64,000 nucleotides of DNA from an archaeon (GTDB taxonomy: Archaea > Nanobdellota > Nanobdellia > SCGC-AAA011-G17 > GW2011-AR17). This document shows positions 4,039 to 57,351 of the stretch, one piece after another (the stretch's first letter is position 1; every line of letters begins with the position of its first letter). Position numbers and translations under genes: made by a program. The notes under the pieces were generated by a model that was given only the letters and a program-made list of their open reading frames with translations, did not search any database and had not been told where the DNA came from. The DNA is taken from contig JABHYY010000018.1 of assembly GCA_018653605.1 (NCBI GenBank), positions 29,324 through 93,323 on the forward strand. Reading direction: 5' to 3'.

Positions 4039-4764
4039 ATGGAAGAACAACTAGACCCACAAATCAGAGAGAGAGTCTCAGAATTAGTAAATGAATATTC
4101 TAATGAACATGATGACACAGCCAAAAGAATGGTACCAATCCTACTTAAAAAGGGTTTAGATAGTGTTAGTCTTAATATGTTCCCTGAACACATGCAATCT
4201 TCGCTTTTGAATGCAGTTGCTGAAGAACTTGTAAAAAAAGGTAGAACTCAAGAAGCTATTGAAGCATTCCTAAGGGCAAAAAACAAACCAAAACTAATTG
4301 AAATTGGTGATAATTACAAAAACATGAACATGTTCTCACAAGCAATTGAATGCTACAAAGAAGCAGAAGCAAAGAGCAAACTATTAGCAGTAGGTGAAAC
4401 CTGCCTAAGAGATGGTCAAATGACAGATGCAATCAAAGCATTCCAATTAGTTGAAGACACTCAAAAATTACTTTTAGTTGGAGATGAATGTTTAAAAAGG
4501 GAAAAGTTCGAATCTGCAATTGAAGTTTTCAAATTCTTAAGAAATAATGAAAAGTTAAGTCTAGTTGGTAGCTTGTGTGTTAAACATGACCAATTAATTC
4601 TTGCAGCAAAAGCATTTGAGTTAGCAGGCTCTTTAGAAAATTTAAACAAAGTTGGAGACATTTTCTTACAAAAAGAACAATTAAACAATGCTTACGAAGT
4701 TTACAAGATTGCTGGAAACCAAATCATGATACAGTTTTTGAGAGAAAACTTTCAAATGATTTAA
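4039..4764 (+). CDS. helical repeat protein (five ~30-aa repeats, TPR/HEAT-like)
   Basis: Repeats of pattern KLLxVGdxCLkxxxxxxAIxAFxL seen directly in translation. Confidence 0.55.
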   Translation: MEEQLDPQIRERVSELVNEYSNEHDDTAKRMVPILLKKGLDSVSLNMFPEHMQSSLLNAVAEELVKKGRTQEAIEAFLRAKNKPKLIEIGDNYKNMNMFSQAIECYKEAEAKSKLLAVGETCLRDGQMTDAIKAFQLVEDTQKLLLVGDECLKREKFESAIEVFKFLRNNEKLSLVGSLCVKHDQLILAAKAFELAGSLENLNKVGDIFLQKEQLNNAYEVYKIAGNQIMIQFLRENFQMI

Positions 4765-4774
4765 TTTTCTTTTT

Positions 4775-5137
4775 TTAACTTAAACCAACCATTATAACAC
4801 CAAGTAGAATTATTCCTATGCTAGCCCATCTTTGTACACTAATGTGCTCTTTGAAAACAAACTTTGACATCAAAGCCACAAAAAAGTAATTCAAAGCAAC
4901 AAAAGGATAAGCAAAACTAAGTTCTAAATTATTCAAGATTACAATCCAAAGCAAAGTTGTTGCACCATAAGCTAAAAACCCAAAGATCACAAACCAATTA
5001 AGATATATTTTTTTCAAATTGTTAAAAAAATCTTTAAACAAGTTTTCTACTCCAGCCCTAACCATACCTTCTTTCAATGACAGCTGAGCTAACACACCCA
5101 AAATTACAGAAACCAATAATAGTATGATGTATATCAT
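4775..5137 (-). CDS. small 4-TM DMT/SMR-like transporter subunit (ArnE/ArnF-like)
   Basis: 120 aa, 4 TM, overlaps partner by 4 bp (atga); paired small EamA-like subunits. Confidence 0.55.
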   Translation of the reverse strand: MIYIILLLVSVILGVLAQLSLKEGMVRAGVENLFKDFFNNLKKIYLNWFVIFGFLAYGATTLLWIVILNNLELSFAYPFVALNYFFVALMSKFVFKEHISVQRWASIGIILLGVIMVGLS

Positions 5138-5574
5138 GTTCTCGACATAAAATAAACCCCCATAAATATTACACCCAACCCAACCAATCTAAGAGCTGAA
5201 AGGCTTTCATTAAAGAAAAACCAAGACAAAATACTAACAATAACATACCCCAAACTCAAACAAGGATAAGCAAAACTCAAGTTCGATTTGGACAAAACTA
5301 TCAACCAAACAAAAGAACTCAAGAAAAATAAAACCAATCCAGAAAGAACAAAAGGATTAGTAAAAGCTAAGATAAAACTACCCAACAGATTTCCAGCAAA
5401 ATCTAAAGCACCCAAATCTAACAAACCTTTTTTTAGTAAAAGCTGGCCACTATCGACAATAAATACTGATAAAACAATCAAAAGTAAGCTTTTCTTCTTA
5501 TCCATCACCAAATAAGAAGACAAAATGTTTAAAAACTTTACTAACCAGGAATATAATAATGGATTTAAACACAA
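5134..5574 (-). CDS. small 4-TM DMT/SMR-like transporter subunit (ArnE/ArnF-like)
   Basis: 146 aa, 4 TM, translationally coupled to 4775..5137. Confidence 0.55.
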   Translation of the reverse strand: MCLNPLLYSWLVKFLNILSSYLVMDKKKSLLLIVLSVFIVDSGQLLLKKGLLDLGALDFAGNLLGSFILAFTNPFVLSGLVLFFLSSFVWLIVLSKSNLSFAYPCLSLGYVIVSILSWFFFNESLSALRLVGLGVIFMGVYFMSRT

Positions 5575-6410
5575 CCTGTAGGAAGATCAAACAATTGAAA
5601 ATTCAAGGTGCAGAAAATATTGCTACTGCAGCAATTGAAGCACTTCTACAAGTTGCAAACAAGTCAAAAGCAAAAGACAAACTTTCTTTCATTTTAGAGC
5701 TAGAAAAAGCAAAAGCAAAGTTATTTTCAACAAGACCAACAGAACCAGCAATGAGGAATTATTTAGACTATATCACAAACAAAGCAAAAAAAGCAAAACA
5801 TCCACAAACTGAAACAAAAAGATTGATCAAACAAGTTTTAAGAGAAAAAAAACAAGCAAAAAAGGACTTAATTAAATATGGAACAAAACTAGTAAAGAAA
5901 AAACACACAGTTTTCACACACTGCCATTCAAGCACAGTTATAGACATTTTAAAAAAAGTAAAACCAAAAGTGCACAACACAGAAACAAGACCTTTATTCC
6001 AAGGTAGACAAACTGCAAAAGATTTAGCAAAAGCAAGAATCAAAGTTGAACACTACACAGATGCACAAGCAAGACTAGCACTAAAAGAAGCAGACATAAT
6101 GCTTATTGGCGCAGATGCAATCACTTACAACAAAGTTTACAACAAAGTAGGCTCAGAAATGTTAGCAATAATTGCAAAAACAAGAAAAGTGCCAGTTTAT
6201 GTTGCATGCTCTTTATGGAAATTCGACCCACACAAAGAAATTGTTGAAGAAAGGTCGCCAACAGAGGTTTGGAAAGCACCCAAAGGCGTCACTGTGAAAA
6301 ATTATGCTTTCGAAAAAGTAAATTTTAAACTAATTAAAGGAATAATTTGTGAAAAAGGAATTCTAAGACCTAAGAAATTTGTAAAAGTTGCTAGGAAAAT
6401 GATTAACTAA
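5559..6410 (+). CDS. ribose-1,5-bisphosphate isomerase (eIF2B alpha/beta/delta-like, e2b2 family)
   Basis: 283 aa; N-term IQGAENIATAAIEALL and C-terminal Rossmann-like IGADAI...VYVACSLWKFD typical of eIF2B/MtnA/R15Pi family; AMPpase and RuBisCO III in same window. Confidence 0.75.
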   Translation: MDLNTTCRKIKQLKIQGAENIATAAIEALLQVANKSKAKDKLSFILELEKAKAKLFSTRPTEPAMRNYLDYITNKAKKAKHPQTETKRLIKQVLREKKQAKKDLIKYGTKLVKKKHTVFTHCHSSTVIDILKKVKPKVHNTETRPLFQGRQTAKDLAKARIKVEHYTDAQARLALKEADIMLIGADAITYNKVYNKVGSEMLAIIAKTRKVPVYVACSLWKFDPHKEIVEERSPTEVWKAPKGVTVKNYAFEKVNFKLIKGIICEKGILRPKKFVKVARKMIN

Positions 6411-6738
6411 GACCTTCAATATACTTAGGCAAACCAGAATTAGCATAACCTTCAGGAATATTTCCAGGAGTAAAAACCATAATTTTTTTTGCACCAGGAA
6501 CAAACAACCTATCCAAAGTAATATCAACAAAAACACCTGGATCCTTGTGATAAGTTAAATAATGCATTGTAACAGTTCCCTGTTCATCAGCAATATCAAT
6601 TTGAACCTGTACTCCACCAATCTCTTCAAGTAACCTATTATTTGCTGTAATAGGACGATCATAAACAAATTCATTACTTTCCTTATCCAATTCAGCCCTT
6701 ACTCTTCTCGCACCTTGCATTAATTCAGTAACATCCAT
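6403..6738 (-). CDS. hypothetical protein
   Basis: 111 aa, convergent 8-bp overlap with R15Pi stop. Confidence 0.4.
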   Translation of the reverse strand: MDVTELMQGARRVRAELDKESNEFVYDRPITANNRLLEEIGGVQVQIDIADEQGTVTMHYLTYHKDPGVFVDITLDRLFVPGAKKIMVFTPGNIPEGYANSGLPKYIEGLS

Positions 6739-6774
6739 AAAAGAGAATTTTAATTTGTTATTTATAAAACTTCC

Positions 6775-7230
6775 CTAAAACTCTTTCAAAACCTTAATAC
6801 CATACTTACTCAAATAGTTCTCCAAAGGAACAGTAAACAAGTGATGCTTATCCTTAGTATATACATCAGACTCAGTCTTCACAGCAACAGCCAAAAGAAC
6901 AGCATCAGAAGCATCAGCAATCAATTTCAACAATTCATTGTCAACAGACCGAACAAAATCTTTCTCAGACTCAAAATTACCAATATGAACATCAACATCT
7001 ACAACAACAAAATCACCTTTCTTAACAAACTCTCGCAACTTATGTTTAAGCTTATGCAACCTATGCCCAACCTTCAACAACTCTTCAACATTAAAAGAAG
7101 TAATTCCATATTTACCCTCAGGCAACTTTTTATTCCTAGACAACATATCAAAAACAAAGCAAGTATCTAATAACTTCAAACCTCTTACATCCATTCCAAC
7201 ATGTTTCAAAGAATCAAACAGCTCTTTCAT
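6775..7230 (-). CDS. PIN-domain protein (VapC/NOB1-like nuclease fold)
   Basis: 151 aa; KLLDTCFVFD (first Asp), FNVEEL, and LLAVAVKTESDVYTKD acidic positions spaced as in PIN domains. Confidence 0.5.
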   Translation of the reverse strand: MKELFDSLKHVGMDVRGLKLLDTCFVFDMLSRNKKLPEGKYGITSFNVEELLKVGHRLHKLKHKLREFVKKGDFVVVDVDVHIGNFESEKDFVRSVDNELLKLIADASDAVLLAVAVKTESDVYTKDKHHLFTVPLENYLSKYGIKVLKEF

Positions 7231-7303
7231 AACTCTCTAAAACATTCCAAACTTTAAATACATTTCCCAAAATTATATAAACACAAAACACTAGAATTAT
7301 CAT

Positions 7304-7945
7304 ATGGAAATACTTTGCTTTGACATGGATAACACTTTGATCTATGGAACAAGAATGCATTTAGAAGCATTCAAACTTTCTTTTAAAAAAAATAAATTAC
7401 CACAAAAAACAAGAAAAGAAATGCTAAAGTATTTCAGCCTTAATGGTAAAGAATACATTCACAAACTATTCCCAGAACTAACAAAAAAACAAGTAATAAA
7501 AGTTGTTGCAGACCATGACCACTATGTTTTCAAAAAAACTGCAAAATTAGTAAAACCAATTCCAGGTGCAAAAGCAACTCTAAAAAAGCTAAAACCACAC
7601 TACAAAATTGCAATTTTATCAAACTGCAAACATGATATAATCCTTTCAAGCTTAAAACATGCAAAATTTGACAAAAAAATGTTTGATTTAATCATAGGCT
7701 ATGATGAAGTTAAACATGGAAAACCTGCACCAGATGAATTATTCAAAGCAGAAAGATTACTAAAAATAAAAAAAGGCTACATGGTTGGTGACTCTATTTA
7801 CGACATCCAAGCTGCAAACAAAGCAGGACTTAAAGGTATTGCAGTACTCACTGGCCACAATTCAAGAGCTGAAATGAAAAAACAAAAACCTCACAAAATA
7901 TTAAATTCTGTAAAAGATTTACCTAAGTTTCTATCCAAAAAGTAA
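7304..7945 (+). CDS. HAD-superfamily hydrolase (phosphatase)
   Basis: 213 aa; motif I FDMDNTL (DxDxT), motif IV GDSIYDIQAANKAG. Confidence 0.75.
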   Translation: MEILCFDMDNTLIYGTRMHLEAFKLSFKKNKLPQKTRKEMLKYFSLNGKEYIHKLFPELTKKQVIKVVADHDHYVFKKTAKLVKPIPGAKATLKKLKPHYKIAILSNCKHDIILSSLKHAKFDKKMFDLIIGYDEVKHGKPAPDELFKAERLLKIKKGYMVGDSIYDIQAANKAGLKGIAVLTGHNSRAEMKKQKPHKILNSVKDLPKFLSKK

Positions 7946-7963
7946 AATAATTATAAATTTTGC

Positions 7964-8497
7964 CTAAAGCTTTGCTGCAGGTTTATCCCAATCTTCAGGG
8001 TGAGGCCTAACTCTTGCACTTATAAAAAAACTCATCAAGGCCCTATTACCTGAAAAGTCATTATTTGGTTCAAAACCTAATTTCTGATAAAATCTTATAG
8101 CATCAGTATTTTCTTTTGCTATAGCAACGACAACAACATCTACATTCCTTTCAGCTTCCCTAGCAGTTTCTATACAATAATTCATTAAATTAGTACCTGC
8201 ACCATTTCCAGGCTTTCTTGCCATGATCCAAGGGATAGTAGTAGTATTAACAATCGGTGTAACCTTACCTGGAACATCAGCATAACCTTGTACTAAAATT
8301 CCTTCTAAAACATCACCATCAAAACAACCAGAAATCCTACCTTCAGCCATCAAACCTTCAACATGCTCAGCAGTATAAGTCTCTCTAGCACTAGCAATAG
8401 TATCACCAGTATAAATTGGATCAAGACCATCTAAACCAGCTCTAAAAATACTTAAAAAATCATTAACATAATCAGGAGTCAAAGCTTTACAAACCAT
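7964..8497 (-). CDS. GNAT family N-acetyltransferase
   Basis: 177 aa; acetyl-CoA binding region VVVAIA...RFYQKLGFE. Confidence 0.7.
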   Translation of the reverse strand: MVCKALTPDYVNDFLSIFRAGLDGLDPIYTGDTIASARETYTAEHVEGLMAEGRISGCFDGDVLEGILVQGYADVPGKVTPIVNTTTIPWIMARKPGNGAGTNLMNYCIETAREAERNVDVVVVAIAKENTDAIRFYQKLGFEPNNDFSGNRALMSFFISARVRPHPEDWDKPAAKL

Positions 8498-8500
8498 TTT

Positions 8501-8725
8501 CTATCCAAAAAGTAAACCTTTTGGATTCCTTTCTTTCCACTCTGTAAACTTCTCTTTAACATGAGTGATTTCGTTCTGATCAAGGCCTAAACCTTCTTTT
8601 TTCTTAATATTTGTAAAGAATTTACCTTTTCCCATATCTTTTAGAAAAACTCTATGTAGATACAAGTATTCTTCTGGTTTGAATAAAAATGGATTTCTTC
8701 GTGGCATTATATTACTTCCTACCAC
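8501..8725 (-). CDS. hypothetical small protein
   Basis: 74 aa ORF immediately downstream of GNAT gene. Confidence 0.3.
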   Translation of the reverse strand: MVGSNIMPRRNPFLFKPEEYLYLHRVFLKDMGKGKFFTNIKKKEGLGLDQNEITHVKEKFTEWKERNPKGLLFG

Positions 8726-9306: not shown

Positions 9307-10566
9307 ATGTTAGATTACATAGACCTAAAATACAAACCTTCTAAAAAAGATCTTGTTGCTGAATACTATGTAGAACCTAACAGATTAAGTCTAAAAACAG
9401 TATCAAACCACCTAGCAGCAGAAAGTTCTATAGGAACATGGGATGATGTAGTAACACTTTCACCAAAAGTTGCAAAGAGACTAAAACCTTCAGTATACTC
9501 AATAAATCAGAAAAAGAAAATAATAAAGATAGCTTACCATGAAGAACTGTTTGAAAACGGAAACATGCCACAAATGCTATCTAGTATTGCAGGAAACATT
9601 TATGGAATGAAAGCAGTAAAAAATCTTAAACTTCTAGATATCCATTTCACAAAATCACAAGTAAAATCCTTCAAAGGCCCAAGGTTTGGAATCAAAGGAA
9701 TAAGAAGAATAACCAAAGTAAAAAAAAGACCTTTAGTTGGAACAATTGTAAAACCAAAAGTTGGCTTAACAGCAAAACAACATGCAAAAGTTGCATTCAA
9801 TGCATGGGTTGGTGGCCTTGACGCAGTTAAATTCGATGAAAACCTAACCAGTATGAAATTTAACAAGTTTGAAAAAAATATCAAACTTACAGAAAAGCTT
9901 AGAAGAAAAGCAGAAAAGATTACAGGTGAAAAAAAGTTATACTTAGCAAACATTACAGCAGAAACAGATGAAATGTTAAGAAGAGCAAAGTTTGTGCAAG
10001 ATCAGGGTGGCAATTACCTAATGGTTGATATTTTAACAATGGGTTTTGCAGCATTACAAACAGTAAGAAAACATGTTAAACTTCCACTGCATGGACACAG
10101 AGCAATGCATGCAGCACTAACAAAAGGAAACAATGGAATGTCAATGTTAGTAATTGCAAAGATTTCAAGACTTTTAGGTATTGACACTTTACACATTGGA
10201 ACTGCATACCTTGGAAAAATGTCAGAATCAAAACAATCAACTTTAGACATTCAAAAAGAAATTGAAAATCCTAATATGAAAGCACATGGTGAACTTCTAA
10301 AACAAAAATGGTATGGTATGAAACCTTGTTTAGCAGTAGCATCAGGAGGTTTACACCCAGGACACATACCAAAGTTAGTAAAAATAATGGGCAATGATGT
10401 TGTAATACAAGCAGGTGGAGGTTGTCATGCTCATCCATCAGGAACAATAGCTGGAGCAAAAGCAATGCGACAAGCTTTAGAAGCATCAATGCAAAAAGTA
10501 CCTTTACGAAGATATGCAAAGACCCACCCAGAACTTTCTGCAGCAATCAAAAGATGGGGTTGCTAA
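9307..10566 (+). CDS. rbcL: RuBisCO large subunit, form III (archaeal AMP-pathway type)
   Basis: 419 aa; GGLDAVKFDENL (carbamylated Lys region), GIDTLHIGTA, GGGCHAHPSG C-terminal loop motifs. Confidence 0.9.
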   Translation: MLDYIDLKYKPSKKDLVAEYYVEPNRLSLKTVSNHLAAESSIGTWDDVVTLSPKVAKRLKPSVYSINQKKKIIKIAYHEELFENGNMPQMLSSIAGNIYGMKAVKNLKLLDIHFTKSQVKSFKGPRFGIKGIRRITKVKKRPLVGTIVKPKVGLTAKQHAKVAFNAWVGGLDAVKFDENLTSMKFNKFEKNIKLTEKLRRKAEKITGEKKLYLANITAETDEMLRRAKFVQDQGGNYLMVDILTMGFAALQTVRKHVKLPLHGHRAMHAALTKGNNGMSMLVIAKISRLLGIDTLHIGTAYLGKMSESKQSTLDIQKEIENPNMKAHGELLKQKWYGMKPCLAVASGGLHPGHIPKLVKIMGNDVVIQAGGGCHAHPSGTIAGAKAMRQALEASMQKVPLRRYAKTHPELSAAIKRWGC

Positions 10567-12524: not shown

Positions 12525-13607
12525 CTACCTCCCAGCTTTGTTCTTTTTGATAGCAATTTCTTGCTTATCAATAAAAAGACTAACCTCTTCCCCATCCCTG
12601 AAATTTGTAATTCTTGTTACAACTTCAGGCAACCTAATCCTACCCATTTTTATATCTAAGTTAGCCAATATTTCTTTTGAATCAACTTTTTGGACATTCA
12701 AATCATCCATAATGTTTTGAACATTATCTCTTTTTTCTTCCTTTCTAAACTCAACAGTTCTTTCATATAAGTACCTTGCAACAATATCAGGAACATCTTT
12801 CCCAGTTGCAGCACTTATCCCTTCAACACCAGGTGTTGCATTAATTTCTAAAACAACAGGCCTCACACCTTGTAAAATATCAACACCACAAACATCAGCT
12901 TTGATTGCTTTTGCAGCCTTTATAGCTAACTGTTCAGTATCATAATCCAACTCAAAAGCAAGACCTTTTCCACCTTGATGAATATTAGCTCTCACTTCTT
13001 CCTTCCCAGCCTTTCTTTGCATACTTGCAACAACTTTGTTTCCAACAACATAAGCCCTAATATCAGTTCCACCAGTATCAATATACTCTTGAATTATAAA
13101 AGCTTGACCAAAAGTTTCCAAAGCATCTAAAAGAGTTTTTGCAGACTCAACAGAATCAGCAACCATAACGCCCTTACCTTGGGTTCCAGCAGGAGTCTTC
13201 AGAATAATAGGATACTTAACCATCTGTAAAACATTTCTTGCTTCTTCAGCATTAGAACAAAAATAAGTTTCAGGTACAGCAACACCTTCCCTTTGCAACC
13301 TAAGCAAAGTTAACAATTTATTATGACAAGTTGGAAAAACAGAAGCATGCAAAGGCAAATAAACAGTTCCAGCCAAAAGATGACTTGCAGTGTACTGCAA
13401 CAACTCATACCTAAAAGATCCTTTAAAATATAAACAATCAAACCCTTTCAAAGGCTTACCTTCATACAAAACTTCTTTTCCAGAATCTACCTTTGTTGAT
13501 AATTTTTTAATATTAACTAACTCAACCTCATCAAAATACTTCTTAGCCCTTTCAAGGATCAATAAAGCTCCCGGACCTCCAACACTAACAACACCTAATT
13601 TCATCAT
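12525..13607 (-). CDS. rimK: RimK-family ATP-grasp alpha-L-glutamate ligase with ~70-aa C-terminal extension
   Basis: 360 aa; ATP-grasp motifs (KPLKGFDCLYFKG, IILKTPAGTQGKGV, EYIDTGGTDIRAYVVG, EINATPG). Confidence 0.8.
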   Translation of the reverse strand: MMKLGVVSVGGPGALLILERAKKYFDEVELVNIKKLSTKVDSGKEVLYEGKPLKGFDCLYFKGSFRYELLQYTASHLLAGTVYLPLHASVFPTCHNKLLTLLRLQREGVAVPETYFCSNAEEARNVLQMVKYPIILKTPAGTQGKGVMVADSVESAKTLLDALETFGQAFIIQEYIDTGGTDIRAYVVGNKVVASMQRKAGKEEVRANIHQGGKGLAFELDYDTEQLAIKAAKAIKADVCGVDILQGVRPVVLEINATPGVEGISAATGKDVPDIVARYLYERTVEFRKEEKRDNVQNIMDDLNVQKVDSKEILANLDIKMGRIRLPEVVTRITNFRDGEEVSLFIDKQEIAIKKNKAGR

Positions 13608-13939
13608 AAAGAAGGGTCAATCAAAAAACCCTGTTTTAACACCTCCACCCCAATCAAAATCTGATACTGCAAATGACTTCTATCAGCCACATTAAAATGT
13701 GTATCTAACTTTTTCCCTTTCAAAACAATCTCAGCTCCAACCAAAGGCCTGACCTGCTGCCCTGAAGCAGACTTAACTAAAATTGTTTTACCCAAACCCT
13801 CTAAACCAAGCTCTTCAGCTAAAGACTTAGATATTGAATTCCCTCTTGCTCCAGTGTCAATCTTAGCTTTGATAACTTTTCCCCCAACTTCAACATCTTC
13901 AACCAAACCAATACAAACCTTATCCATAATAAGATTCAA
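13604..13939 (-). CDS. retropepsin-like aspartic protease (RimB / PF05618 Zn_protease-like), RimK-associated
   Basis: 111 aa; KIDTGARGNS (D-T-G catalytic motif); 4-bp overlap (atga) with rimK start. Confidence 0.6.
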   Translation of the reverse strand: MNLIMDKVCIGLVEDVEVGGKVIKAKIDTGARGNSISKSLAEELGLEGLGKTILVKSASGQQVRPLVGAEIVLKGKKLDTHFNVADRSHLQYQILIGVEVLKQGFLIDPSL

Positions 13940-15053: not shown

Positions 15054-16523
15054 ATGAAATTAAAAGTAAAAGAGGTTAAGTTAAGTACAGGTGGTCCCTT
15101 AATAGCAATTCTTACACAAAAAGATGCAAGATTGTTAGATCTTTCTCCAGGAGATAGAGTTCTAATCAAAAGACCCAAAGTAAAAAAAGAAATAACTTGT
15201 GTTGTAGACATTTCAAGCATGGGAATAAAAAATGGAGAGATAGGATTTTTTGAAGAAGCATTCAAAGCACTAAAAGCTAAATCAAAACAACAAGTAGAAG
15301 TTAATTTAGCAGAAAAACCAAAATCAATTTATTATATCAAGAAAAAATTAGAAGGAATTGAATTAAGTGGAAAAGAAATTAATGAAATTGTCAAGGACAT
15401 CATTGCAAACAAACTTTCTGAAGTTGAAACAACATACTTTATTGCAGCATGTTACACAAAAGGAATGAAACTAAGAGAAGCTGCAAAACTAACACAATCA
15501 ATTGTTGACAATGGTGAAACTTTAAAATTCAAAAGTAAAGTTCTTGTTGACAAACATTGCATAGGAGGTGTTCCAGGAAACAGAACAACAATGTTAGTTG
15601 TACCAATCATGGCAGCACTAGGATACAAAATGCCAAAAACTTCCTCAAGAAGCATTACTTCACCAGCAGGAACTTCAGACACAATGGAAGTTCTAGCACC
15701 AGTTTCCCTTTCAACTAAAAAAATAAAAAAAGTAGTAAACAAAACAGGAGGTTGCATGGCTTGGGGTGGAGCAGTAAACTTAGCAGCAGCAGATGACAAA
15801 CTAATCAAACTAAGGCACGATCTTTCAATTGATCCTTTAGGCATGATGCTTGCAAGTATCATGGCAAAGAAAAAGTCAGTTGGCTCAACACATGTTTTAA
15901 TTGACATTCCATGGGGCAAAGGTTCAAAAGTTGCAAATAAAAAAGATGCAATAAAATTAAAAAAACTTTTCATAAAAATAGGTAAACTTCTTGGAATGAA
16001 AGTAAAAGTTGTTATGACAGATGGAACACAACCAGTTGGTTCAGGAATAGGGCCAGCACTAGAATGTTCAGATGTAATTGCAGTACTAAAGGGCGATGGA
16101 CCAAATGATCTAAGAGAAAAAGGAGTTTTCTTAGCAACAGAAATGTTAAAATTATTAAAAGTAAGAAGACCAAAGAAAAAAGTTTTAGATATTCTAGACT
16201 CAGGCAAAGCTTACAAAAAGTTTAGAGAAATTATTATAGCACAAGGTGGACTAAAAAGACCAAACATTCCTTCAGCAGATTTATTTTATGAATACAAAGC
16301 AACCAAAGCAGGAAAAGTAAAAGAGATCAATAATAAACAAATTTCAAAATTAGCTAGAATCGCAGGTGCACCTGATGACAAAGTAGCTGGAATGTACCTT
16401 AGAGTCAGAGTTCATAACAAAGTGAAAAAAGGACATATATTATTTACACTTTATGCAAAGAGTCAGACTAAACTAGACAATGCTAAGAAGTATTTGAAAA
16501 GTATAAAACCAATAATTTACTAA
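15054..16523 (+). CDS. AMP phosphorylase (thymidine-phosphorylase family with N-terminal extension)
   Basis: 489 aa; CIGGVPGNRTTMLVVPIMAALG...TSSRSITSPAGTSDTME nucleoside-phosphorylase motifs plus ~80-aa N-terminal domain typical of archaeal AMPpase. Confidence 0.85.
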   Translation: MKLKVKEVKLSTGGPLIAILTQKDARLLDLSPGDRVLIKRPKVKKEITCVVDISSMGIKNGEIGFFEEAFKALKAKSKQQVEVNLAEKPKSIYYIKKKLEGIELSGKEINEIVKDIIANKLSEVETTYFIAACYTKGMKLREAAKLTQSIVDNGETLKFKSKVLVDKHCIGGVPGNRTTMLVVPIMAALGYKMPKTSSRSITSPAGTSDTMEVLAPVSLSTKKIKKVVNKTGGCMAWGGAVNLAAADDKLIKLRHDLSIDPLGMMLASIMAKKKSVGSTHVLIDIPWGKGSKVANKKDAIKLKKLFIKIGKLLGMKVKVVMTDGTQPVGSGIGPALECSDVIAVLKGDGPNDLREKGVFLATEMLKLLKVRRPKKKVLDILDSGKAYKKFREIIIAQGGLKRPNIPSADLFYEYKATKAGKVKEINNKQISKLARIAGAPDDKVAGMYLRVRVHNKVKKGHILFTLYAKSQTKLDNAKKYLKSIKPIIY

Positions 16524-16560: not shown

Positions 16561-17085
16561 ATGGAAGAAATCAAAAGAAAAATAAGAACAATCCCTAACT
16601 TTCCAAAAGAAGGAATAATGTTCAGAGACATCACTACTTTACTGGCTGACCCTGAAGGACTAAAGAAAACACTAGAATACTTTCTAATCAGGTACAAAGG
16701 AAGAAAAATTGACAAAGTTGTAGGTATTGAAAGCAGAGGTTTCATTTTAGGAGGAGCACTAGCTTACTTGCTAAACAAAGGTTTTGTTCCAGTTAGAAAA
16801 AAAGGGAAATTACCTGGCGAAACAATTGGAATAACTTATGATCTAGAATATGGAACAGACACTTTAGAAATGCACACAGATTCAATTAAACCAGGAGAAA
16901 ATGTTTTACTTGTAGACGATCTAATTGCCACAGGAGGTTCCTGTAGAGCTGCAGCAGACCTTATTGAAAGACAAGGTGGAAAAATAGTAGAATGCGCATT
17001 TATAGTAGATCTGCCAGATCTAAAAGGTAAAGAAAAAATTAAAAATTATGATATATTTACTTTAGTTGAATTCGAAGGAGATTAA
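16561..17085 (+). CDS. apt: adenine phosphoribosyltransferase
   Basis: 174 aa; PRPP-binding VLLVDDLIATGGS; VVGIESRGFILG. Confidence 0.85.
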   Translation: MEEIKRKIRTIPNFPKEGIMFRDITTLLADPEGLKKTLEYFLIRYKGRKIDKVVGIESRGFILGGALAYLLNKGFVPVRKKGKLPGETIGITYDLEYGTDTLEMHTDSIKPGENVLLVDDLIATGGSCRAAADLIERQGGKIVECAFIVDLPDLKGKEKIKNYDIFTLVEFEGD

Positions 17086-17295
17086 TTACCTTCTCTTTTT
17101 TCTTTTAACAACTTTTTTCTTAACTGTTTTTTTCCTAAAAAGCCTTTTTTTTGCAGGTTTCTTACCTAGGATTACAGATTCTAACCTTACAATCTTCCTT
17201 TCTAGCAAAAATATCCTTCTCAAACCATAAATCATTGCAATAACACCAGCAAGAGTTATGTAAGATATAAATAATATTTGATTTTCAATAGCCAT
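17086..17295 (-). CDS. small membrane protein with Lys/Arg-rich tail
   Basis: 69 aa, one TM then KKRLFRKKTVKKKVVKRKKRR. Confidence 0.3.
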   Translation of the reverse strand: MAIENQILFISYITLAGVIAMIYGLRRIFLLERKIVRLESVILGKKPAKKRLFRKKTVKKKVVKRKKRR

Positions 17296-17386
17296 AAAGT
17301 ATCACCTCTGTTACTATATACACCATTCTAATATAAATACTTTACTACAAAGGTTTAAATATGATTTCTTCACCCAAAAATAGGAT

Positions 17387-18613
17387 ATGAGCGCACTAAA
17401 TGACATATTTTACAGGCTTGAGCAAGCATGGACCAAATACAACCACCTTTCACCTAGAGAGATCTGTCTAAGAACACCAGCTATTGATAGAGATAGTGAA
17501 ATTGTAGGAGTTAGAAAAGATCTAGCACAAACTCAAGTTGATGCAGAAATATTACTAAGAGCAATCACAGATTATACATTAGGAGAATACTTAGGAGCTA
17601 CTGGAAACATTCCAACAACAAGCCAATATTTACAAGAAGTTGGTTTTTATTGCGATAAACCTGGACACAAAGGATCACCAATTGTAGCAACAGGAGTTTT
17701 TCCACAAACAAGATTAGACAGATTGGTATTAAGCCCAAGAAATTTAACACACATTCATCACAATAAACAACATGGTCAATCTGAACTAAGAAGGATCTAC
17801 AGAAGAAATAGGATCTTTTGTCCTAGCTGTAAAAGTCCAACAACTAGAGTAAAGACAGCAGAAGTGATTTCAGTTTATGATGCAGAAAAAGAAGAAGAGT
17901 TACAAAGAAGCATCAAATCATTAAGATCAGTTGATAGAAGAAGAGTACAGGAACTAATGCATCCAGATTTAAGATTTCAAACTTATATCAATGTAGCAGG
18001 AGGAATAACACCCATTTCAACTTTGCTTAATCAAGATCCAAAAAAAAGAGTAAGAGCATACCCACAAGTTAAACAATTAGTTAGAGAATTTGGAGCACCA
18101 TTGATAACAGCAAAATCAAGAATGAAATTTAGAAGATTGGTAAAAAAATATCTATTAACACAAAATATTGAAACAGATAGAAGATTTTTAGACATTTTAG
18201 GAATAAGATTTATAACAGAAAGTTCAAGTCAATGTTATGAACTATTTTATAGAACTTTTCAAAACTTGCCCTTTTTAAACATAGGTGAATTTCATAACGC
18301 ATTAGAAGATTACATAGCAGAGCCAAAAGAAGATACAGGATATCAAACTCTACAAGGATTATTCTCAATAAGCCCACTTATTCCATTAGATGAATCAAAC
18401 CTCCCAGAAGGAGAATTAAATAGATTCTTGTCTTGGATATGTCTTGAAGCACAAACTAGAACTTTTGAAATGGAAATTGCAGCAAACAAGGATGGTTATC
18501 ATGATAAAGGGACAAGAAAAAAGCTAAAACAAAGAGGATTAGAACCAAAATTAGTTTTCATGGAAAAAGTTGCAGACCCAAGAAAAATAGCACCACACAA
18601 AATACATCACTAA
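17387..18613 (+). CDS. RelA/SpoT-like nucleotidyltransferase (alarmone-synthetase / toxSAS-like) with novel N-terminal domain
   Basis: 408 aa; C-terminal half carries the RSH synthetase motifs SRMKFRRLVKKY...DILGIRFI, GYQTLQGLF (cf. GYRSLH), LEAQTRTFEMEIAAN (cf. E[IV]QIRTxxMxxWAE), HDKGTRKK; TATA tttaaata 27 bp upstream. Confidence 0.55.
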   Translation: MSALNDIFYRLEQAWTKYNHLSPREICLRTPAIDRDSEIVGVRKDLAQTQVDAEILLRAITDYTLGEYLGATGNIPTTSQYLQEVGFYCDKPGHKGSPIVATGVFPQTRLDRLVLSPRNLTHIHHNKQHGQSELRRIYRRNRIFCPSCKSPTTRVKTAEVISVYDAEKEEELQRSIKSLRSVDRRRVQELMHPDLRFQTYINVAGGITPISTLLNQDPKKRVRAYPQVKQLVREFGAPLITAKSRMKFRRLVKKYLLTQNIETDRRFLDILGIRFITESSSQCYELFYRTFQNLPFLNIGEFHNALEDYIAEPKEDTGYQTLQGLFSISPLIPLDESNLPEGELNRFLSWICLEAQTRTFEMEIAANKDGYHDKGTRKKLKQRGLEPKLVFMEKVADPRKIAPHKIHH

Positions 18614-20343
18614 TCTTTTTTCTCATATAACTTTTCAATCACTGCAGCAAATGCAGGCCGAGTCAAAAACACACCCATAGTAACTCCAACAATTGTAGTA
18701 ACTGCAAAACCTCTAATCAAACCAGCACCAGCATTCCATAAAGGGATCATAGCAGCAACAGTAGTTGCATACGCAACAAAGATAATAAAGAAAGCTCTTT
18801 TAATTTTTTCTTTCCAATTTGTAAACCTTTCATCTGCACCCCTAATAGCTTCATCAATAATAACAATTTGATGATCAACACCAGTTCCAATTGCAGCTAA
18901 GATACCAGCAATTGAAGCAACATCTAAGTTCCATCCAACCATTGCAGCAAATCCTAAAATCAAAAGCACTTCAGATAAAACTGTAGTCAACATTGGAATA
19001 ACAACTTTGAAAGCTCTATACCTAATAAAAATAACAACTCCAACTGCAATCAAAGCAAACAATCCAACCCACAAAATATTTTTCAAAAAGCTTTCACCAA
19101 GAACAGGAGAAACACTATCTAACTGTGCAATCTCAAGATCAAATGGCATTGAACCAGTTATCAAAATAGTTTGCAACTGATCCATGTTAACTGAAGCATC
19201 TTCAACAGCTTCCATTTTATTAGATCCATAACCAGGACCAGAAATAGAAATTTGTGTAGTTGACTTACCTTTCAAATCTTCACCAATATTCAAACTATCC
19301 ACCAACTCACCATCCAAATTAAAATCAATAGTTTCATTCAAATAACTTGACCCACTATCACCATAAACAACATCAAGATCTTTTGTAGCATCAGCCATTA
19401 TATCAGCAGCTTCTTGTGCCAATGTAACAGAAAACTCAAACTGACAATACCACTGAGTTCCAGAAATTTGGTTACAACTCCTTATCCCAGAACAAGACCC
19501 ATCATTTCTACAAACATACAACACATCTTCCTCACCACCCTCGAAAACCAAAGTCTCTCCAACATAAGCTTCAAACTTACCTTGTTGAGAAATCAAATCC
19601 CTAACTTCATCCTGTGTAACACCAGCAATCTCAACTAATATATACTGATTACCTTGCCAATCATTTGCAGTTCTAATAACAATATCACTCAAACCATAAA
19701 CATTCAACCTATTACTCAAAACTTTAATCAAATCAGTAATATCTGCATCACTAACTTGAGTTTCAGAAATAGGCTCTAACAAAACCCTAGTTCCACCTTG
19801 TAAATCTAAACCAAGAACTAAGTTAGACTTTTCAGCTTCACCAACAGTAATATCCAACATTTCACTAGACAAATATACAATCTCCCCTGAATCAGTTGTA
19901 ATTGAAATTCTATTTTTAGGAACCAACTCACCCAAATAATCTTCAAGATCTTCATTAGTTTCAAACTCAAGACCATTCAAACCAATAAGTGTAGCATCAC
20001 TTTCCAAATACTCTGAATTTAAAATAGTTAAATTTTCATCAACAACAAACCCAACATCATTTGTAATTGAATAAGCAGTAGTTTCAAGAGAAGTTTCAAC
20101 AACTAAAACCTGTTCCTCATACACCATTGCTTCAGTAGCATCATAAAAATCTTCTAAAGTATTAATTTCATGATCATTAATAGAATACAAAATATCCCCA
20201 ACCTCCAAACCAAACTCATCAGCATCAGAACCAGAAGTAATAGACTGTACTTCAATACCTTCAGCCCAAGGGTTAGGACTTATTGCAATAACAGCCAAAA
20301 TCAAGGCAGCCACTAATATCCAAGCTCTAAAAGGAACCTTCAT
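18610..20343 (-). CDS. secD: protein-export membrane protein SecD
   Basis: 577 aa; N-terminal TM, large extracellular domain, C-terminal 5 TM bundle; adjacent and coupled to secF. Confidence 0.8.
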   Translation of the reverse strand: MKVPFRAWILVAALILAVIAISPNPWAEGIEVQSITSGSDADEFGLEVGDILYSINDHEINTLEDFYDATEAMVYEEQVLVVETSLETTAYSITNDVGFVVDENLTILNSEYLESDATLIGLNGLEFETNEDLEDYLGELVPKNRISITTDSGEIVYLSSEMLDITVGEAEKSNLVLGLDLQGGTRVLLEPISETQVSDADITDLIKVLSNRLNVYGLSDIVIRTANDWQGNQYILVEIAGVTQDEVRDLISQQGKFEAYVGETLVFEGGEEDVLYVCRNDGSCSGIRSCNQISGTQWYCQFEFSVTLAQEAADIMADATKDLDVVYGDSGSSYLNETIDFNLDGELVDSLNIGEDLKGKSTTQISISGPGYGSNKMEAVEDASVNMDQLQTILITGSMPFDLEIAQLDSVSPVLGESFLKNILWVGLFALIAVGVVIFIRYRAFKVVIPMLTTVLSEVLLILGFAAMVGWNLDVASIAGILAAIGTGVDHQIVIIDEAIRGADERFTNWKEKIKRAFFIIFVAYATTVAAMIPLWNAGAGLIRGFAVTTIVGVTMGVFLTRPAFAAVIEKLYEKKD

Positions 20344-21218
20344 TCTTTTCCTCCCTTTTTCTTAGCATACCAAACCAACACACCCGCATTCATTGCATAA
20401 GTAATAATAACATCAACTAAAAGCCCAATCACAATAACCATAAACATTTGCTTTAGAACCAAAGAAGTTGCAACAAGGAAAGCAACACTCAAAGCAGCAA
20501 GTGTAGTACCAGTCATAGTAAGACCAGTTTTCATAGCACCAATCATCCGATCCACAGCCTTACCCTCTTTTCTTTTCAAAACTTTAGTAGTTAACAAAAT
20601 ATCAGTATCAATAGAATAACCAATCAACAATAATAGTGCAGCAATTCCAGAAGTAGATAAATTAACTCCCATCAAAGAAAGTATAGCTAAAGTAATAACC
20701 ATATCAGAGAACGCAGCAAACACAACAGCAAAAGAAGGAATAAAACTTCTAAAAGTAATCAAAACAACAATAGCCATAAACAAGAAAGCCAAACCAATAG
20801 CAACCAACATTTGCTGATAAAAACTCTCACCTAAAGCAGAACCAACAATTTCCAAAGAATAATTATCAGAGTTCAACTCAAACCCAATATAATCCTCAAT
20901 TGCTAATAACAAAGCCTCTTCATCAGCCTCACTAGTTTCAACAACAAACCCTATCTGCACATCAGAAGCAAACTCAGAAAGTTCCCTCACATTCAAATCA
21001 ACACCCAAAGTATCAATCAAATGTTGCTCTAACCCATCAAAATTCTCAGTAGAATAAACAGTAACAGTAATTCCACCCTTCAAAGAAACATCTTTATCTA
21101 TAATATCACCAGTCTGAACATAGTTCATAACTAACACACCTAAAGCCAAAATAACTAGTATAATAGGTATGATAAATAGCTTCTTATAATGCTCTGTGTA
21201 AAACCCTCTCAAATCCAT
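20340..21218 (-). CDS. secF: protein-export membrane protein SecF
   Basis: 292 aa; TM1, periplasmic domain, 5 TM; 4-bp overlap with secD. Confidence 0.8.
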   Translation of the reverse strand: MDLRGFYTEHYKKLFIIPIILVILALGVLVMNYVQTGDIIDKDVSLKGGITVTVYSTENFDGLEQHLIDTLGVDLNVRELSEFASDVQIGFVVETSEADEEALLLAIEDYIGFELNSDNYSLEIVGSALGESFYQQMLVAIGLAFLFMAIVVLITFRSFIPSFAVVFAAFSDMVITLAILSLMGVNLSTSGIAALLLLIGYSIDTDILLTTKVLKRKEGKAVDRMIGAMKTGLTMTGTTLAALSVAFLVATSLVLKQMFMVIVIGLLVDVIITYAMNAGVLVWYAKKKGGKE

Positions 21219-23382: not shown

Positions 23383-25722
23383 ATGGAAAGAGCCCTATTT
23401 ATAACTATAATAATACTTGTATTCTGTTTAACTATTTTTTCTCCAGGAATAATAAACCAAGAAATCACAGGCTTGACAACTTTAGACACAAACACAACAA
23501 ATGAAACAGAGGAAGCAACAACAACAGATGAAAACATAACAACAGAAACTCAAGACATAATCACACTAACCCTAAACTCAGACAAGTTCGCACAAAACAC
23601 AGAACCAGAAGGAACAATCTCTTTATACCTAACAAACAACATTCAAACAACACAAACTATCAAAGTTACAGTAGACTCTGTTTACGAAAAAACATTCACA
23701 GATGCACTAACACAAATGTCACACACTTACACAGAACTTTTAGGTGACACAACAGGTTCAAACCCACAAACATCAAAAAAGATTTCTTCATCCTCAGACC
23801 TAGCATTCCAAATTCCAAGATTTTCTGACATAGACTCAGTAACCTTAAACATTGAAGCTGAAAAAGCAGAATTGCCAACAATAGACTTTGGTGGCGAAGG
23901 TTTAACAGATTGGTCCTACACAGGAATTTTCACAAATTACACAACAGTGTACACAATAGCAAAAGACTTTGACTCAAGCACAGAAGGCACAGGCTACATT
24001 CAAAGTGACAACTATTACTGTGAATTTGTAACATTGCCAAAAGCAAGACATTACACAATCTCAGCAAACTACACACAACTTTCAACAAATGGTGACATTA
24101 AAGCAGTAATCCTTTCAGCACCAACAGGCCAACCAACAAGTGGCTGGCAAGGTGGATCAGACAATTGCGACTTACCAGAAACTCAAGGTTCATGTGAAAT
24201 AGAATTAGCATACGCAATTGAAGGTGACTACTTAGTTTGTATCTACTCAGCTGACACTGAAGACGAAGAAGAACAATTATACGAAATTCCAACTGACACT
24301 TCAAATGAAACAACAACAGCATTCACCTGTCCAAAAACAGAAGACAGCCTTTGCTCAAAAACATACAATGTAAACTTTCCAATATTTATCCAATCAGCAA
24401 ACTATGACACAAAAGCAAATAGCACTTTAGATATTGACGCATGGGAAACATCACCAACCTCAATACTAACTGCAGTAAAATACTATGTTGGAACTGACCC
24501 ATACGCAGGAGTTTGTAAAACAAGCACATGTTATGTTCCAATCTCAGTTGAATTCACAAGTGGAACCTTAAACTTCTCAGGCTTAGATGTAGTTTACGAA
24601 TACAATGGCATCCAACAATCAACAACAACATACTATGACTTAGTCACAGAAACATCAGAAATAAACACAATCAATTCAAAAAGTCTAGATGGAGAAACAA
24701 TAGAATTTGACCTAGACATATTCAACATCAGCTTACCAACAGTTAAAGATTACACAATCACTGTAGAGTTCCAAGGCAATTCAACAAGCACAACATTCTC
24801 AGTACTAGATGCTTCAGAAATATTAGATGCAACAACTTTAATTGAAAATTCACTAGCTGACTTTGAAACCTTTTTGAACCAAGCAAATCAGGAATACTAT
24901 GTGACTTACATGCTAGACTTAACACAAAGCATGCAAACAAAAGAAAATCAATTAGAATCTTACCAAAACCAAATTGGTTTCTTAGATGAAGATACATTGT
25001 TAGCACAAGTTGAATCAACTTTAAGTTCAATGCCAGAAAGTATAACATTCACTGATGAAACAACAGAATTTCAAGTAATAAGCTCACTACCAACTTCCTT
25101 AGACACAGATGAAATTTTAGAAATGCAAGATGATGTAACAGTTGAAGGTTTTTACAAAACAGTAACAATAGAATACTACAATGGTGAAACTGAAACTTAC
25201 AACTTAATAAGAAAAGAAATAATTCCACAAAAAAGTTTAGAAGAAGCTAAATTGTATGAAGTCACATCAGCTGAAGTTTTAAGTTCACAAAGAGGTAGCA
25301 CAGAATCATTTGGTTTATCTTATTCTATAGGAACTTTTGACGAGCAAAAAGATTATTATTATATGACAACTGAAGATGTTGGTTTAGGTGATTTTACAAC
25401 AGTTGTAACTTATGTTGAAAATGATGAAGAAGAAATTGTAATAGATTATATCTGTGGTGATGGTTACTGTGATCCATTTGGTGAATCAGCAGCATCTTGT
25501 CCTGAAGATTGTGTACAAGAAGGAAGCAGTAACATGCTTGTACCTATAATAATAGGAGTTATTGTATTAATTGCAATTATTGTTGTAGTTGTATTAAACT
25601 TGCCAAAGAAGAAATCTAAGCCAGTTCTAACAAGACCTGTAAGGAAACCTGCAGCTAAAGTTGTTAAGAAGCCTGTTAAGAAACCTTCTAGCTCAGGTCC
25701 AAAGCCACTTTTCAAAAAGTAA
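23383..25722 (+). CDS. large Thr-rich cell-surface protein with C-terminal TM anchor and Lys/Pro-rich tail
   Basis: 779 aa; signal peptide, many N-x-T/S sequons, C-terminal CGDGYCDPFGESAASCPEDC, TM (LVPIIIGVIVLIAIIVVVVL) and KKPVKKP tail. Confidence 0.65.
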   Translation: MERALFITIIILVFCLTIFSPGIINQEITGLTTLDTNTTNETEEATTTDENITTETQDIITLTLNSDKFAQNTEPEGTISLYLTNNIQTTQTIKVTVDSVYEKTFTDALTQMSHTYTELLGDTTGSNPQTSKKISSSSDLAFQIPRFSDIDSVTLNIEAEKAELPTIDFGGEGLTDWSYTGIFTNYTTVYTIAKDFDSSTEGTGYIQSDNYYCEFVTLPKARHYTISANYTQLSTNGDIKAVILSAPTGQPTSGWQGGSDNCDLPETQGSCEIELAYAIEGDYLVCIYSADTEDEEEQLYEIPTDTSNETTTAFTCPKTEDSLCSKTYNVNFPIFIQSANYDTKANSTLDIDAWETSPTSILTAVKYYVGTDPYAGVCKTSTCYVPISVEFTSGTLNFSGLDVVYEYNGIQQSTTTYYDLVTETSEINTINSKSLDGETIEFDLDIFNISLPTVKDYTITVEFQGNSTSTTFSVLDASEILDATTLIENSLADFETFLNQANQEYYVTYMLDLTQSMQTKENQLESYQNQIGFLDEDTLLAQVESTLSSMPESITFTDETTEFQVISSLPTSLDTDEILEMQDDVTVEGFYKTVTIEYYNGETETYNLIRKEIIPQKSLEEAKLYEVTSAEVLSSQRGSTESFGLSYSIGTFDEQKDYYYMTTEDVGLGDFTTVVTYVENDEEEIVIDYICGDGYCDPFGESAASCPEDCVQEGSSNMLVPIIIGVIVLIAIIVVVVLNLPKKKSKPVLTRPVRKPAAKVVKKPVKKPSSSGPKPLFKK

Positions 25723-39588: not shown

Positions 39589-39691
39589 CGGACCTGGCAG
39601 GATTTGAACCTGCGACCCCTTGCTTAGGAGGCAAGTGCTCTTTTTAGCCCTGTCAATTCTTAACAAAGTATCCAAACTGAGCTACAGGTCC
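39589..39691 (-). tRNA. tRNA-Arg (anticodon CCU) interrupted by ~28-nt non-canonical intron at D-loop/D-stem junction (39641..39668)
   Basis: Minus strand: GGACCUG-UA-GCUC-AGUUUGGAUA-[CUUUGUUAAGAAUUGACAGGGCUAAAAA]-GAGC-A-CUUGC-CUCCUAA-GCAAG-GGGUC-GCAGG-UUCAAAU-CCUGC-CAGGUCC-G; all stems pair once insert is removed. Confidence 0.6.
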
Positions 39692-57117: not shown

Positions 57118-57351
57118 ATTTTATTAACTTCTACATCTAAATATTCTCCATGGAATGTAAAAAAGAACAAAACCTAAAGCATTGCAACTGCACCTATTCC
57201 TGCTCAAAAAAAGGGATCTGTTGTGAGTGCATAGCCTACCACAGAGCAAGGAGAGAGCTCCCTGCATGCTATTTTAGCAAAGAAAAGGAAGCAACCTATA
57301 ACAGAGGTATGGATAACCTTTAATAACATCAAAATCCATCAAAAACACCAT

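Follow-up and report, generated by a model that had tools for sequence, protein, structure and literature searches.

A divergent RelA/SpoT-type synthetase domain joined to a previously undescribed, putatively zinc-binding module in a DPANN archaeon

The gene described here lies on the forward strand of a 64,000-nucleotide stretch of archaeal DNA (assembly GCA_018653605.1, contig JABHYY010000018.1, positions 29,324 to 93,323), which we call the window. It occupies positions 17387..18613 (+) of the window, starts with ATG and encodes a 408-amino-acid (aa) protein that belongs to the family of RelA/SpoT homologues (RSHs) and is built of two modules, an N-terminal one composed of helices and a putative zinc domain and a C-terminal RSH synthetase (SYNTH) domain. 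The protein is identical to MBT4174636.1 (NCBI, 'hypothetical protein [archaeon]'), and the samples in which the identical protein occurs comprise, among others, marine metagenomes (for example TARA relatives). The open reading frame (ORF) on which the original prediction was built is real, and all the peptide strings quoted from it are found at the expected residues, namely SRMKFRRLVKKY at 244–255, DILGIRFI at 269–276, GYQTLQGLF at 318–326, LEAQTRTFEMEIAAN at 353–367, HDKG at 372–375, CDKPGH at 89–94 and CPSCKS at 145–150. The parts of the gene, of its product and of its immediate surroundings are listed in Table 1.

Table 1 Features of the RSH gene, its product and the adjacent genes, with positions in the window (for clade A, see text; AF2, AlphaFold2; pLDDT, predicted local distance difference test)
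Feature	Position	Strand	Basis or remark
apt, adenine phosphoribosyltransferase	16561..17085	+	Pfam Pribosyltran; upstream flank kept in clade A
69-aa ORF	17086..17295	-	Between apt and the RSH gene; conserved beside apt
TATA-like box TTTAAATA	17354..17361	+	Purine-rich 'caaagg' before it; 25 intervening bases up to the A of ATG
Helical sub-domain, aa 1-75	17387..17611	+	AF2 helices 5-18 and 23-34, long helix 37-72; pLDDT 78-94
Beta-rich domain, aa 76-180	17612..17926	+	AF2 strands 77-89, 99-106, 120-123, 142-144 and 151-165; helix 166-177
Putative Cys-His-Cys-Cys zinc site	C89 17651-17653; H94 17666-17668; C145 17819-17821; C148 17828-17830	+	Conservation
L-x-[Y/H/F]-x-x-[Y/F/H] motif, aa 120-125 (L-T-H-I-H-H)	17744..17761	+	Alignment
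Helices before the catalytic sheet, aa 181-238	17927..18100	+	Model helices 184-235; counterparts of the helices at the N terminus of small alarmone synthetases
SYNTH catalytic core, aa 239-370	18101..18496	+	Pfam, profile, Foldseek, alignment
Donor-site basic motif R245-x-K247...K254	18116-18151	+	RelP alignment
D269-x-x-G-x-R274	18191-18214	+	RelP alignment
G-loop P313-K314...G318-Y319	18338-18364	+	RelP alignment
E354-x-Q356-x-R358-T359	18443-18487	+	RelP alignment
C-terminal helices, aa 371-408	18497..18610	+	Alignment and model
secD	18610-20343	-	Convergent with the RSH gene; downstream flank kept in clade A
secF	20340-21218	-	Convergent with the RSH gene; downstream flank kept in clade A

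The Pfam profile RelA_SpoT (PF04607) matches the window protein with E=4.2e-5 (24.2 bits) and is found in all 13 aligned members of its family, in the best case with E=1.7e-15; TIGR00691 gives a weak match to the window protein. When a profile of the family was run against PDB sequences, it retrieved RelP/SAS2 (2.2e-17), S. aureus RelP (3e-15), RelA/Rel (1e-9 to 3e-11) and also RelQ, and gave no match to CapRel. The motif match thus exceeds chance. The alignments of this profile to Rel and RelP begin at about aa 188–250. A profile of long RSHs aligns to the SYNTH region only, and neither profile searches nor hhalign detected a signal of the HD, TGS, ZFD or ACT domains in the window protein or its family.

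The predicted structure leads to the same family. An AlphaFold2 model computed from four sequences was poor (pLDDT 58.6), and we used instead a model computed from the 13-sequence alignment, which has a pLDDT of 86.4 and a predicted template modelling score (pTM) of 0.87. All 12 significant matches of this model to the PDB in a Foldseek search (E≤0.001) are RSH synthetases, with RelP leading. The weaker matches listed are nearly all RSH synthetases too. RelP, RelQ and Rel are matched with a probability of 1.00, and CapRel comes lower than RelP (E about 1e-3 versus 4e-5). The BFVD library of viral structures contained weak RSH matches only, and PADLOC returned a single weak match, limited to the synthetase region, to the candidate family PDC-S33 (E=7e-4). 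The RelA_SpoT profile, the RelP structures and the AlphaFold2/Foldseek comparison agree, and the catalytic motifs are intact, as had been anticipated for an RSH synthetase-type protein; the two checks proposed at that time, a PF04607 search and a comparison of a predicted structure with RelQ and CapRel, returned a RelA_SpoT match and an RSH fold, respectively. As both the match and the nucleotidyltransferase fold are present, the protein is best described as an RSH-fold enzyme whose predicted active site is intact. Judged by profile and by modelled fold, its C-terminal half is a real, if very divergent, RSH synthetase domain.

Roles of individual residues were transferred from S. aureus RelP (PMC5794853) through a HMMER alignment. 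In RelP, R78 stacks on the adenine of ATP, K80 and K88 contact the phosphates, R112 contributes to adenine stacking, D107 and E174 serve Mg2+, and Y151 of the G-loop stacks on the acceptor (PMC5794853). The equivalent residues of the window protein are R245, K247, K254, R274, D269, E354 and Y319, in this order. K247, K254, D269, R274 and Q356 are invariant in the 13 members; Y319, E354, R358 and T359 are kept in 12, K314 in 11 and R245 in 10 of them. The catalytic positions are therefore near-invariant despite an overall identity among the members of only about 18–20%. The G-loop signature P-K-x-x-G-Y is retained, as in enzymes that use a nucleotide acceptor, and the loop connecting the G-loop strand to the ExQ strand (aa 329–350) is about 20–25 residues longer than in RelP.

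The N-terminal ~180 aa constitute a previously undescribed module that presumably serves the RSH catalytic core as a new kind of regulatory module. Residues 1–180 have no match to a Pfam, NCBIfam or PADLOC family, no structure other than RSHs is significantly similar to the module in Foldseek searches of the PDB and BFVD, and the long RSHs contain no domain (HD, TGS, AH, ZFD or ACT) to which the module displays similarity (hhalign probability 0.08). These family, structure and long-RSH searches bear out the initial impression that the N-terminal domain matches nothing recognized, and no description of a zinc-domain RSH architecture was found in the literature searched. An apparent second hmmsearch domain, in which aa 126–184 align with the ACT region, was rejected at a score of −2.6 bits.

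The putative metal ligands of this module are well conserved. C89 and C145 are present in 13 of the 13 members and C148 in 12, and a His follows C89 by 3–5 residues in most of them. This Cys/His pattern fits a zinc site, and the domain would accordingly be expected to bind zinc. The CPSCKS string is weakly zinc-ribbon-like, with a marginal match to Spt4 in a single-sequence search of PDB sequences. Of all regions of the protein, the zinc domain varies most, its identity within clade A being 26–29% compared to 39–48% for the SYNTH core. The pTM of 0.87 implies that, in the model, the two modules have a fixed arrangement relative to each other.

The beta-rich domain also carries the conserved aromatic motif at aa 120–125. 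Position 122 is Y in 10 of the 13 members, H in two and F in one; the aligned variants read YTVY, YSHY, YSDY and FVVF, and the window protein has its own form, HIHH. In the pseudo-zinc-finger domain (pZFD) antitoxins of the toxic small alarmone synthetases (toxSASs) CapRel and FaRel2, a YXXY motif inserts between the two adenine-stacking Arg residues of the donor site (PMC11782079). By analogy, we infer that the aa 120–125 motif may be akin to this plug.

This likeness gives rise to a different reading of the protein, in which it is a cis-autoinhibited toxic RSH that acts as a single-gene growth-arrest or abortive-infection switch similar to toxSASs and CapRel. The zinc-finger domain would plug the ATP donor site, possibly with aa 122–125 stacking on R245 and R274, and a trigger such as a viral or host-derived protein would free the site and thereby set off pyrophosphorylation of the tRNA CCA end or synthesis of (pp)pApp. 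The architecture of the protein is in line with this proposal: a zinc-finger-type beta/alpha domain is fused to SYNTH in a single gene, its packing is confidently predicted and fixed, the conserved motif parallels the pZFD YXXY, and both arginines are present. The catalytic half is basic (isoelectric point 9.45), PADLOC points weakly to PDC-S33, and CapRel is among the Foldseek matches. The order of the domains, however, is opposite to that of CapRel, the N-terminal domain has no detectable similarity to a known antitoxin or to the ZFD of long RSHs, the window protein carries H-I-H-H and not YXXY, and its sequence is nearer to the non-toxic RelP and RelQ. We consider such a toxic enzyme unlikely, though to be taken seriously. 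Its more specific version, an archaeal domain-swapped analogue of CapRel in which a genuine Cys-His-Cys-Cys zinc finger gates the RSH in cis by means of aa 122–125 until a trigger such as contact with a virus or a host frees the enzyme to pyrophosphorylate tRNA or to flood the cell with (pp)pApp/(p)ppGpp, and which became fixed in the core genome of a DPANN lineage as a growth-arrest switch, is a tentative analogy that we regard as rather doubtful.

The genomic context of the gene is informative in this regard. In the related loci L005, L008, L019 and L023, an equivalent TTTA(T)AAATA box is found at an unchanged distance from the start codon. The maintenance of a TATA-like box at this spacing in four orthologous or related loci means that the RSH gene very probably has its own promoter, and the original prediction was right to assign it one. 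The transcript is, as far as the sequence can tell, very probably monocistronic with a very short leader or none.

The arrangement of apt, a small reverse ORF, the RSH gene and convergent secD-secF is the same in L005, L008 and L019, whose RSH proteins are 68%, 37% and 33% identical to that of the window, respectively, with a glucokinase gene added in L008. The 3′ end of the RSH gene and secD overlap by 3–4 nucleotides at their stop codons (18610–18613), and this overlap is found in every clade-A locus (L001–L005, L008 and L019). Since the convergent stop codons overlap, there is no space for separate terminators. The genes that flank the RSH gene are divergent or convergent housekeeping genes. 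In none of the seven genomic contexts is there a conserved co-directional partner gene, and no mobile-element, prophage or defence gene neighbours the RSH gene.

The 69-aa ORF that separates apt from the RSH gene encodes one hydrophobic helix followed by an extremely Lys/Arg-rich C-terminal tail; it has no Pfam match and, with a ratio of nonsynonymous to synonymous substitution rates (dN/dS) of 0.12, is under purifying selection. The initial description did not mention this ORF. In L008, the glucokinase gene is located between this ORF and the RSH gene, which shows that the small ORF travels with apt. It was considered as an antitoxin and rejected because it is encoded on the other strand, is matched by no Pfam family and accompanies apt, not the RSH gene.

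Directly upstream of the RSH gene, a stretch of 8 kb comprises the genes for the large subunit of a form-III-like RuBisCO (9307–10566, +) and an AMP-phosphorylase-like Glycos_transf_3 protein (15054–16523, +) as well as apt (16561–17085, +). Form III RuBisCO, AMP phosphorylase and apt are components of the archaeal AMP/nucleotide-salvage pathway. This cluster is kept in L001 and L005 and partly in L019, and AMP phosphorylase and RuBisCO genes are found near the RSH gene in several clade-A loci. A functional link between the RSH and purine salvage is speculation only, because the second clade of the family lacks the salvage neighbours.

This second clade, clade B, comprises three genomes in which the protein has the same two-module architecture at about 19% identity and a conserved neighbourhood of its own. 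In L016 (region 5253–8623), L020 (region 4061–7308) and L023 (region 4507–6989), the RSH gene is preceded on the same strand by a DUF371 gene, which in L023 is fused to one for a HAD hydrolase, and is followed by a convergent Nip7-like PUA gene, with ribosome-biogenesis genes around. The position of DUF371 and the Nip7-like PUA gene next to the clade-B RSH may reflect a functional association. A further proposal is that the RSH is associated with translation, its zinc domain docking on the ribosome or on RNA, in function like the ZFD/TGS region of long RSHs, and tying alarmone synthesis to translational status. The clade-B genes do lie among those for KsgA/Dim1, a PUA protein, the Nip7-like PUA protein, a DRG-type GTPase with a TGS domain and ribosomal proteins, the window protein is basic as a whole (isoelectric point 9.36), and zinc ribbons are frequently nucleic-acid binders. 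The clade-A neighbours apt and secDF, on the other hand, are unrelated to translation, and the N-terminal domain has no homology to TGS, AH, ZFD or ACT, as the hhalign and hmmsearch results given above indicate. Small archaeal genomes generally keep the order of the genes around ribosomal ones, and the clade-B association with translation genes may for this reason be incidental. We find ribosome or RNA docking improbable and a less likely explanation.

The base composition of the gene is native. Its GC content is 0.330 compared to 0.324 for the window, and its GC content at third codon positions is like that of its neighbours. Prolyl-tRNA synthetase (ProRS) of the window is 79% identical to that of L005 and 70% identical to that of L019. 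As these separate lineages share the locus, it has been inherited vertically. The RSH gene is an old, stably inherited chromosomal gene and not a recently inserted toxin. The initial description of the gene as inserted between apt and secDF is not supported, given that orthologues at 68%, 37% and 33% identity keep the arrangement, the GC content at all and at third codon positions is native and viral contigs yielded no relatives.

Measured against the L005 orthologue, dN/dS is 0.35 for the whole RSH gene, 0.40 for its N-terminal half and 0.31 for its C-terminal half. The last two values show that both modules are under purifying selection. The neighbouring genes have lower ratios (apt, 0.08; AMP phosphorylase, 0.09; secD, 0.17; the small ORF, 0.12). 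These rates bear on the toxic-enzyme proposal in opposite ways. A dN/dS of 0.35 next to neighbours at 0.08–0.17, an RSH identity of 33% between two genomes whose ProRS is 70% identical, a zinc domain that is the most variable part of the protein and a rare distribution would all suit a toxic enzyme. The nearly equal ratios of the two halves, in contrast, leave no hypervariable sensor, the locus is syntenic and of housekeeping type in two deeply diverged clades and not part of a variable island, mobile-element, prophage and defence neighbours are missing, no family member was found on viral contigs and the base composition is native. The toxSAS/CapRel-like part of the original prediction thus finds no support in the genomic context, there being no partner gene in seven contexts, a weak PADLOC match and a sequence nearer to RelP and RelQ. 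The fast evolution of the gene and the aromatic-x-x-aromatic motif of its zinc domain nevertheless keep a cis-gated toxic enzyme as a live rival.

The family is very rare, comprising about 12 clusters, and apparently found in DPANN archaea only. When 1.84 billion representative proteins were searched exhaustively with HMMER, 54 matches were obtained, about a dozen of them relatives over the full length and the others ordinary RSHs. Among the matches listed for GTDB species representatives, there are generic RSHs only and none of the zinc-domain family. A scan of metagenomes added two further short loci, and no relatives were found on viral contigs.

Combining these findings, we favour the following reading, to which we assign a probability of about 0.5. 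The protein would be a vertically inherited and catalytically competent pyrophosphokinase of the small-alarmone-synthetase (SAS) type that belongs to a rare, apparently DPANN-restricted family, is encoded at a fixed chromosomal site of a marine Woesearchaeota-like archaeon and is regulated or targeted by its zinc module. The SYNTH domain would bind ATP-Mg2+ via R245, K247, K254, D269, R274 and E354 and transfer the beta-gamma pyrophosphate of ATP to the 3′-OH of an acceptor stacked on Tyr319 of the G-loop. The acceptor is most likely a purine nucleotide, which would yield a (p)ppGpp- or (pp)pApp-like alarmone; we favour such an acceptor on sequence and model grounds because the P-K-x-x-G-Y signature with its conserved Lys is present and the domain is closer to RelP and RelQ than to tRNA-modifying enzymes. 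The N-terminal helical and Cys-His-Cys-Cys zinc domain would pack on the catalytic domain and, acting in cis, regulate or target the enzyme and time its activity.

Several observations weigh against this reading. (i) The score of the window protein, 24.2 bits, is below the 27-bit gathering score of Pfam RelA_SpoT. (ii) GYRSLH is changed to GYQTLQ, with His replaced by Gln, and HxxYK is changed to D369-G-Y-H372-D-K in the clade of the window protein. As these two altered positions are on the acceptor side, the acceptor may not be GDP/GTP. (iii) No RSH-type hydrolase is encoded within the 64-kb window, the only part of this genome that was seen, so that this negative is uninformative for the genome as a whole. 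(iv) The RSH gene evolves 3–4 times faster than its neighbours, and the combination of a very rare family with fast evolution is unusual in a housekeeping regulator. (v) No sequence signature distinguishes tRNA-using from nucleotide-using RSH enzymes (Kurata et al., bioRxiv 10.1101/2021.04.30.441581), and the substrate is not predictable from sequence. (vi) No archaeon has ever been found to contain (p)ppGpp (PMC8646023). The first two of these points and the long inserted segment that separates the G-loop from the ExQ strand would also be compatible with a pseudo-enzyme or with another chemistry, e.g. that of a generic nucleotidyltransferase, carried out by a protein that has kept the RSH fold. 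A protein relieved of its pyrophosphokinase function would hardly be expected to display near-invariant ATP-Mg2+ and pyrophosphate-transfer residues at only about 18% identity and purifying selection on both halves, and we hold this explanation to be less likely and, indeed, very improbable.

Comparison with characterized systems places the window protein closest to RelP and RelQ (SAS2 and SAS1 of Firmicutes; 6FGK, 6EWZ, 6FGX, 5DEC), which are its best profile and structural matches. Shared with them are the SYNTH fold, the ATP-donor residues, the Asp and Glu for Mg2+, the G-loop Tyr, ExQxRT and the lack of a hydrolase domain. The identity to these enzymes is about 22–24% over about 170 residues and the host is an archaeon; the window protein differs further by the added ~180-aa N-terminal helical and zinc module, the longer loop between the G-loop and ExQ, the His-to-Gln change in GYRSLH and the HxxYK altered in its clade.

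CapRel (CapRelSJ46; 7ZTB, 9ERV), a fused toxin-antitoxin tRNA pyrophosphokinase, likewise combines an RSH synthetase with a zinc-finger-type beta/alpha domain in one polypeptide and has an aromatic-x-x-aromatic motif, YXXY, in this accessory domain. In CapRel, however, toxSYNTH is followed by a C-terminal pseudo-zinc-finger antitoxin, whereas the accessory domain of the window protein is N-terminal and has the Cys/His ligands. We detected no similarity in sequence between the accessory domains of the two proteins, RelP is matched better than CapRel, and the window gene resides in a stable housekeeping locus and not in a prophage or defence island. The bipartite toxSASs FaRel, FaRel2, PhRel and PhRel2 (Jimmy et al. 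2020, PMC7229694) resemble the window protein in having SYNTH without a hydrolase, in a patchy and rare distribution and in fast evolution. They differ from it in their antitoxin: the seven contexts of the family contain no adjacent conserved antitoxin or bicistronic operon, and the window gene is served by a promoter of its own, its neighbours being convergent.

The long RSHs (Rel, RelA or SpoT, among them DPANN representatives described in PMC8407392 and found here in L013) share the homologous SYNTH domain and the occurrence in DPANN-type archaea. All of their other domains (HD, TGS, AH, ZFD and ACT/RRM) are missing from the window protein, whose N-terminal domain is unrelated to them at a detectable level. 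A precedent for the fusion of a SAS to an unrelated N-terminal domain is provided by the dual-domain SASs, actRel with DUF429 and the RNase HII-SAS of M. smegmatis (PMC3153485, PMC7591505). Unlike in these bacterial proteins, no DUF429 or RNase H match is present here.

RSH enzymes define the stringent control of bacteria as well as a class of toxins and anti-phage effectors that keeps growing. The archaeal RSHs are seen as rare, as acquired by horizontal transfer and as lacking a proven function. Atkinson et al. 2011 encountered them only sporadically and ascribed them to transfer from bacteria (PMC3153485), and Li et al. 2021 reported RelA/SpoT-annotated genes in 19–69% of the genomes of several DPANN phyla, for which a bacterial origin was also proposed (PMC8407392). 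A classic long RSH with an HD-like region, SYNTH and TGS is encoded at 6400–7692 (+) of L013, a metagenome-assembled genome labelled 'archaeon ARS1334', and runs off the end of the contig. Bacterial-type long RSHs therefore coexist in DPANN-like archaea with the zinc-domain family. In view of these figures and of L013, the premise that reduced archaea generally lack (p)ppGpp metabolism is outdated as far as RSH genes are concerned. DPANN archaea were thus already known to carry RSH genes; what had not been described before is the RSH family with a zinc module.

What sets the zinc-domain family apart is its own architecture, its apparent restriction to DPANN archaea, its fixed chromosomal positions over deep divergence and the preservation of its catalytic residues. 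With 408 aa, the window protein is a small and tractable candidate for asking whether ultra-small symbiotic archaea use 3′-pyrophosphorylated nucleotides or tRNA to control growth. Should the zinc domain gate the active site as pseudo-zinc-finger antitoxins do, it would connect the regulation of housekeeping and toxic RSHs across the two prokaryotic domains. A domain-swapped analogue of CapRel, if such it is, would represent the first functional archaea-specific RSH signalling or toxin system, whichever its substrate.

The remainder of the window contains genes of archaeal type, including those for the signal recognition particle RNA, ProRS, aspartyl-tRNA synthetase, Elp3 and the form-III-like RuBisCO. 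Proteins of 'Candidatus Woesearchaeota' and 'Nanoarchaeota archaeon' are the nearest named relatives of this ProRS (60–65% identity), and the window accordingly comes from a DPANN archaeon of the Woesearchaeota/Nanoarchaeota group. At 23383–25722 (+), a 779-aa ORF has no Pfam match; L005 and L019 have counterparts of 774 aa and 782 aa, respectively, in the same place, and the ORF therefore encodes a lineage-specific large protein. A RimK-type ATP-grasp ligase (12525–13607, −) forms a pair with the product of the ORF upstream (about 13604–13930, −), which has a RimB-like aspartic protease domain, and the pair is kept in L005. A 595-aa protein encoded at 39725–41512 (−) combines PIN, T2SSE-type ATPase and KH domains. 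At 39597–39649 (−), an Rfam tRNA match of 37 bits spans model positions 9–63 only and was not called by ARAGORN; this element may be the fragment of a tRNA, or else a tRNA that is split or atypical. The tRNA-Arg(TCG) at 57351–57441 (+) is 91 nucleotides long, a length that suggests an intron or a long insertion.

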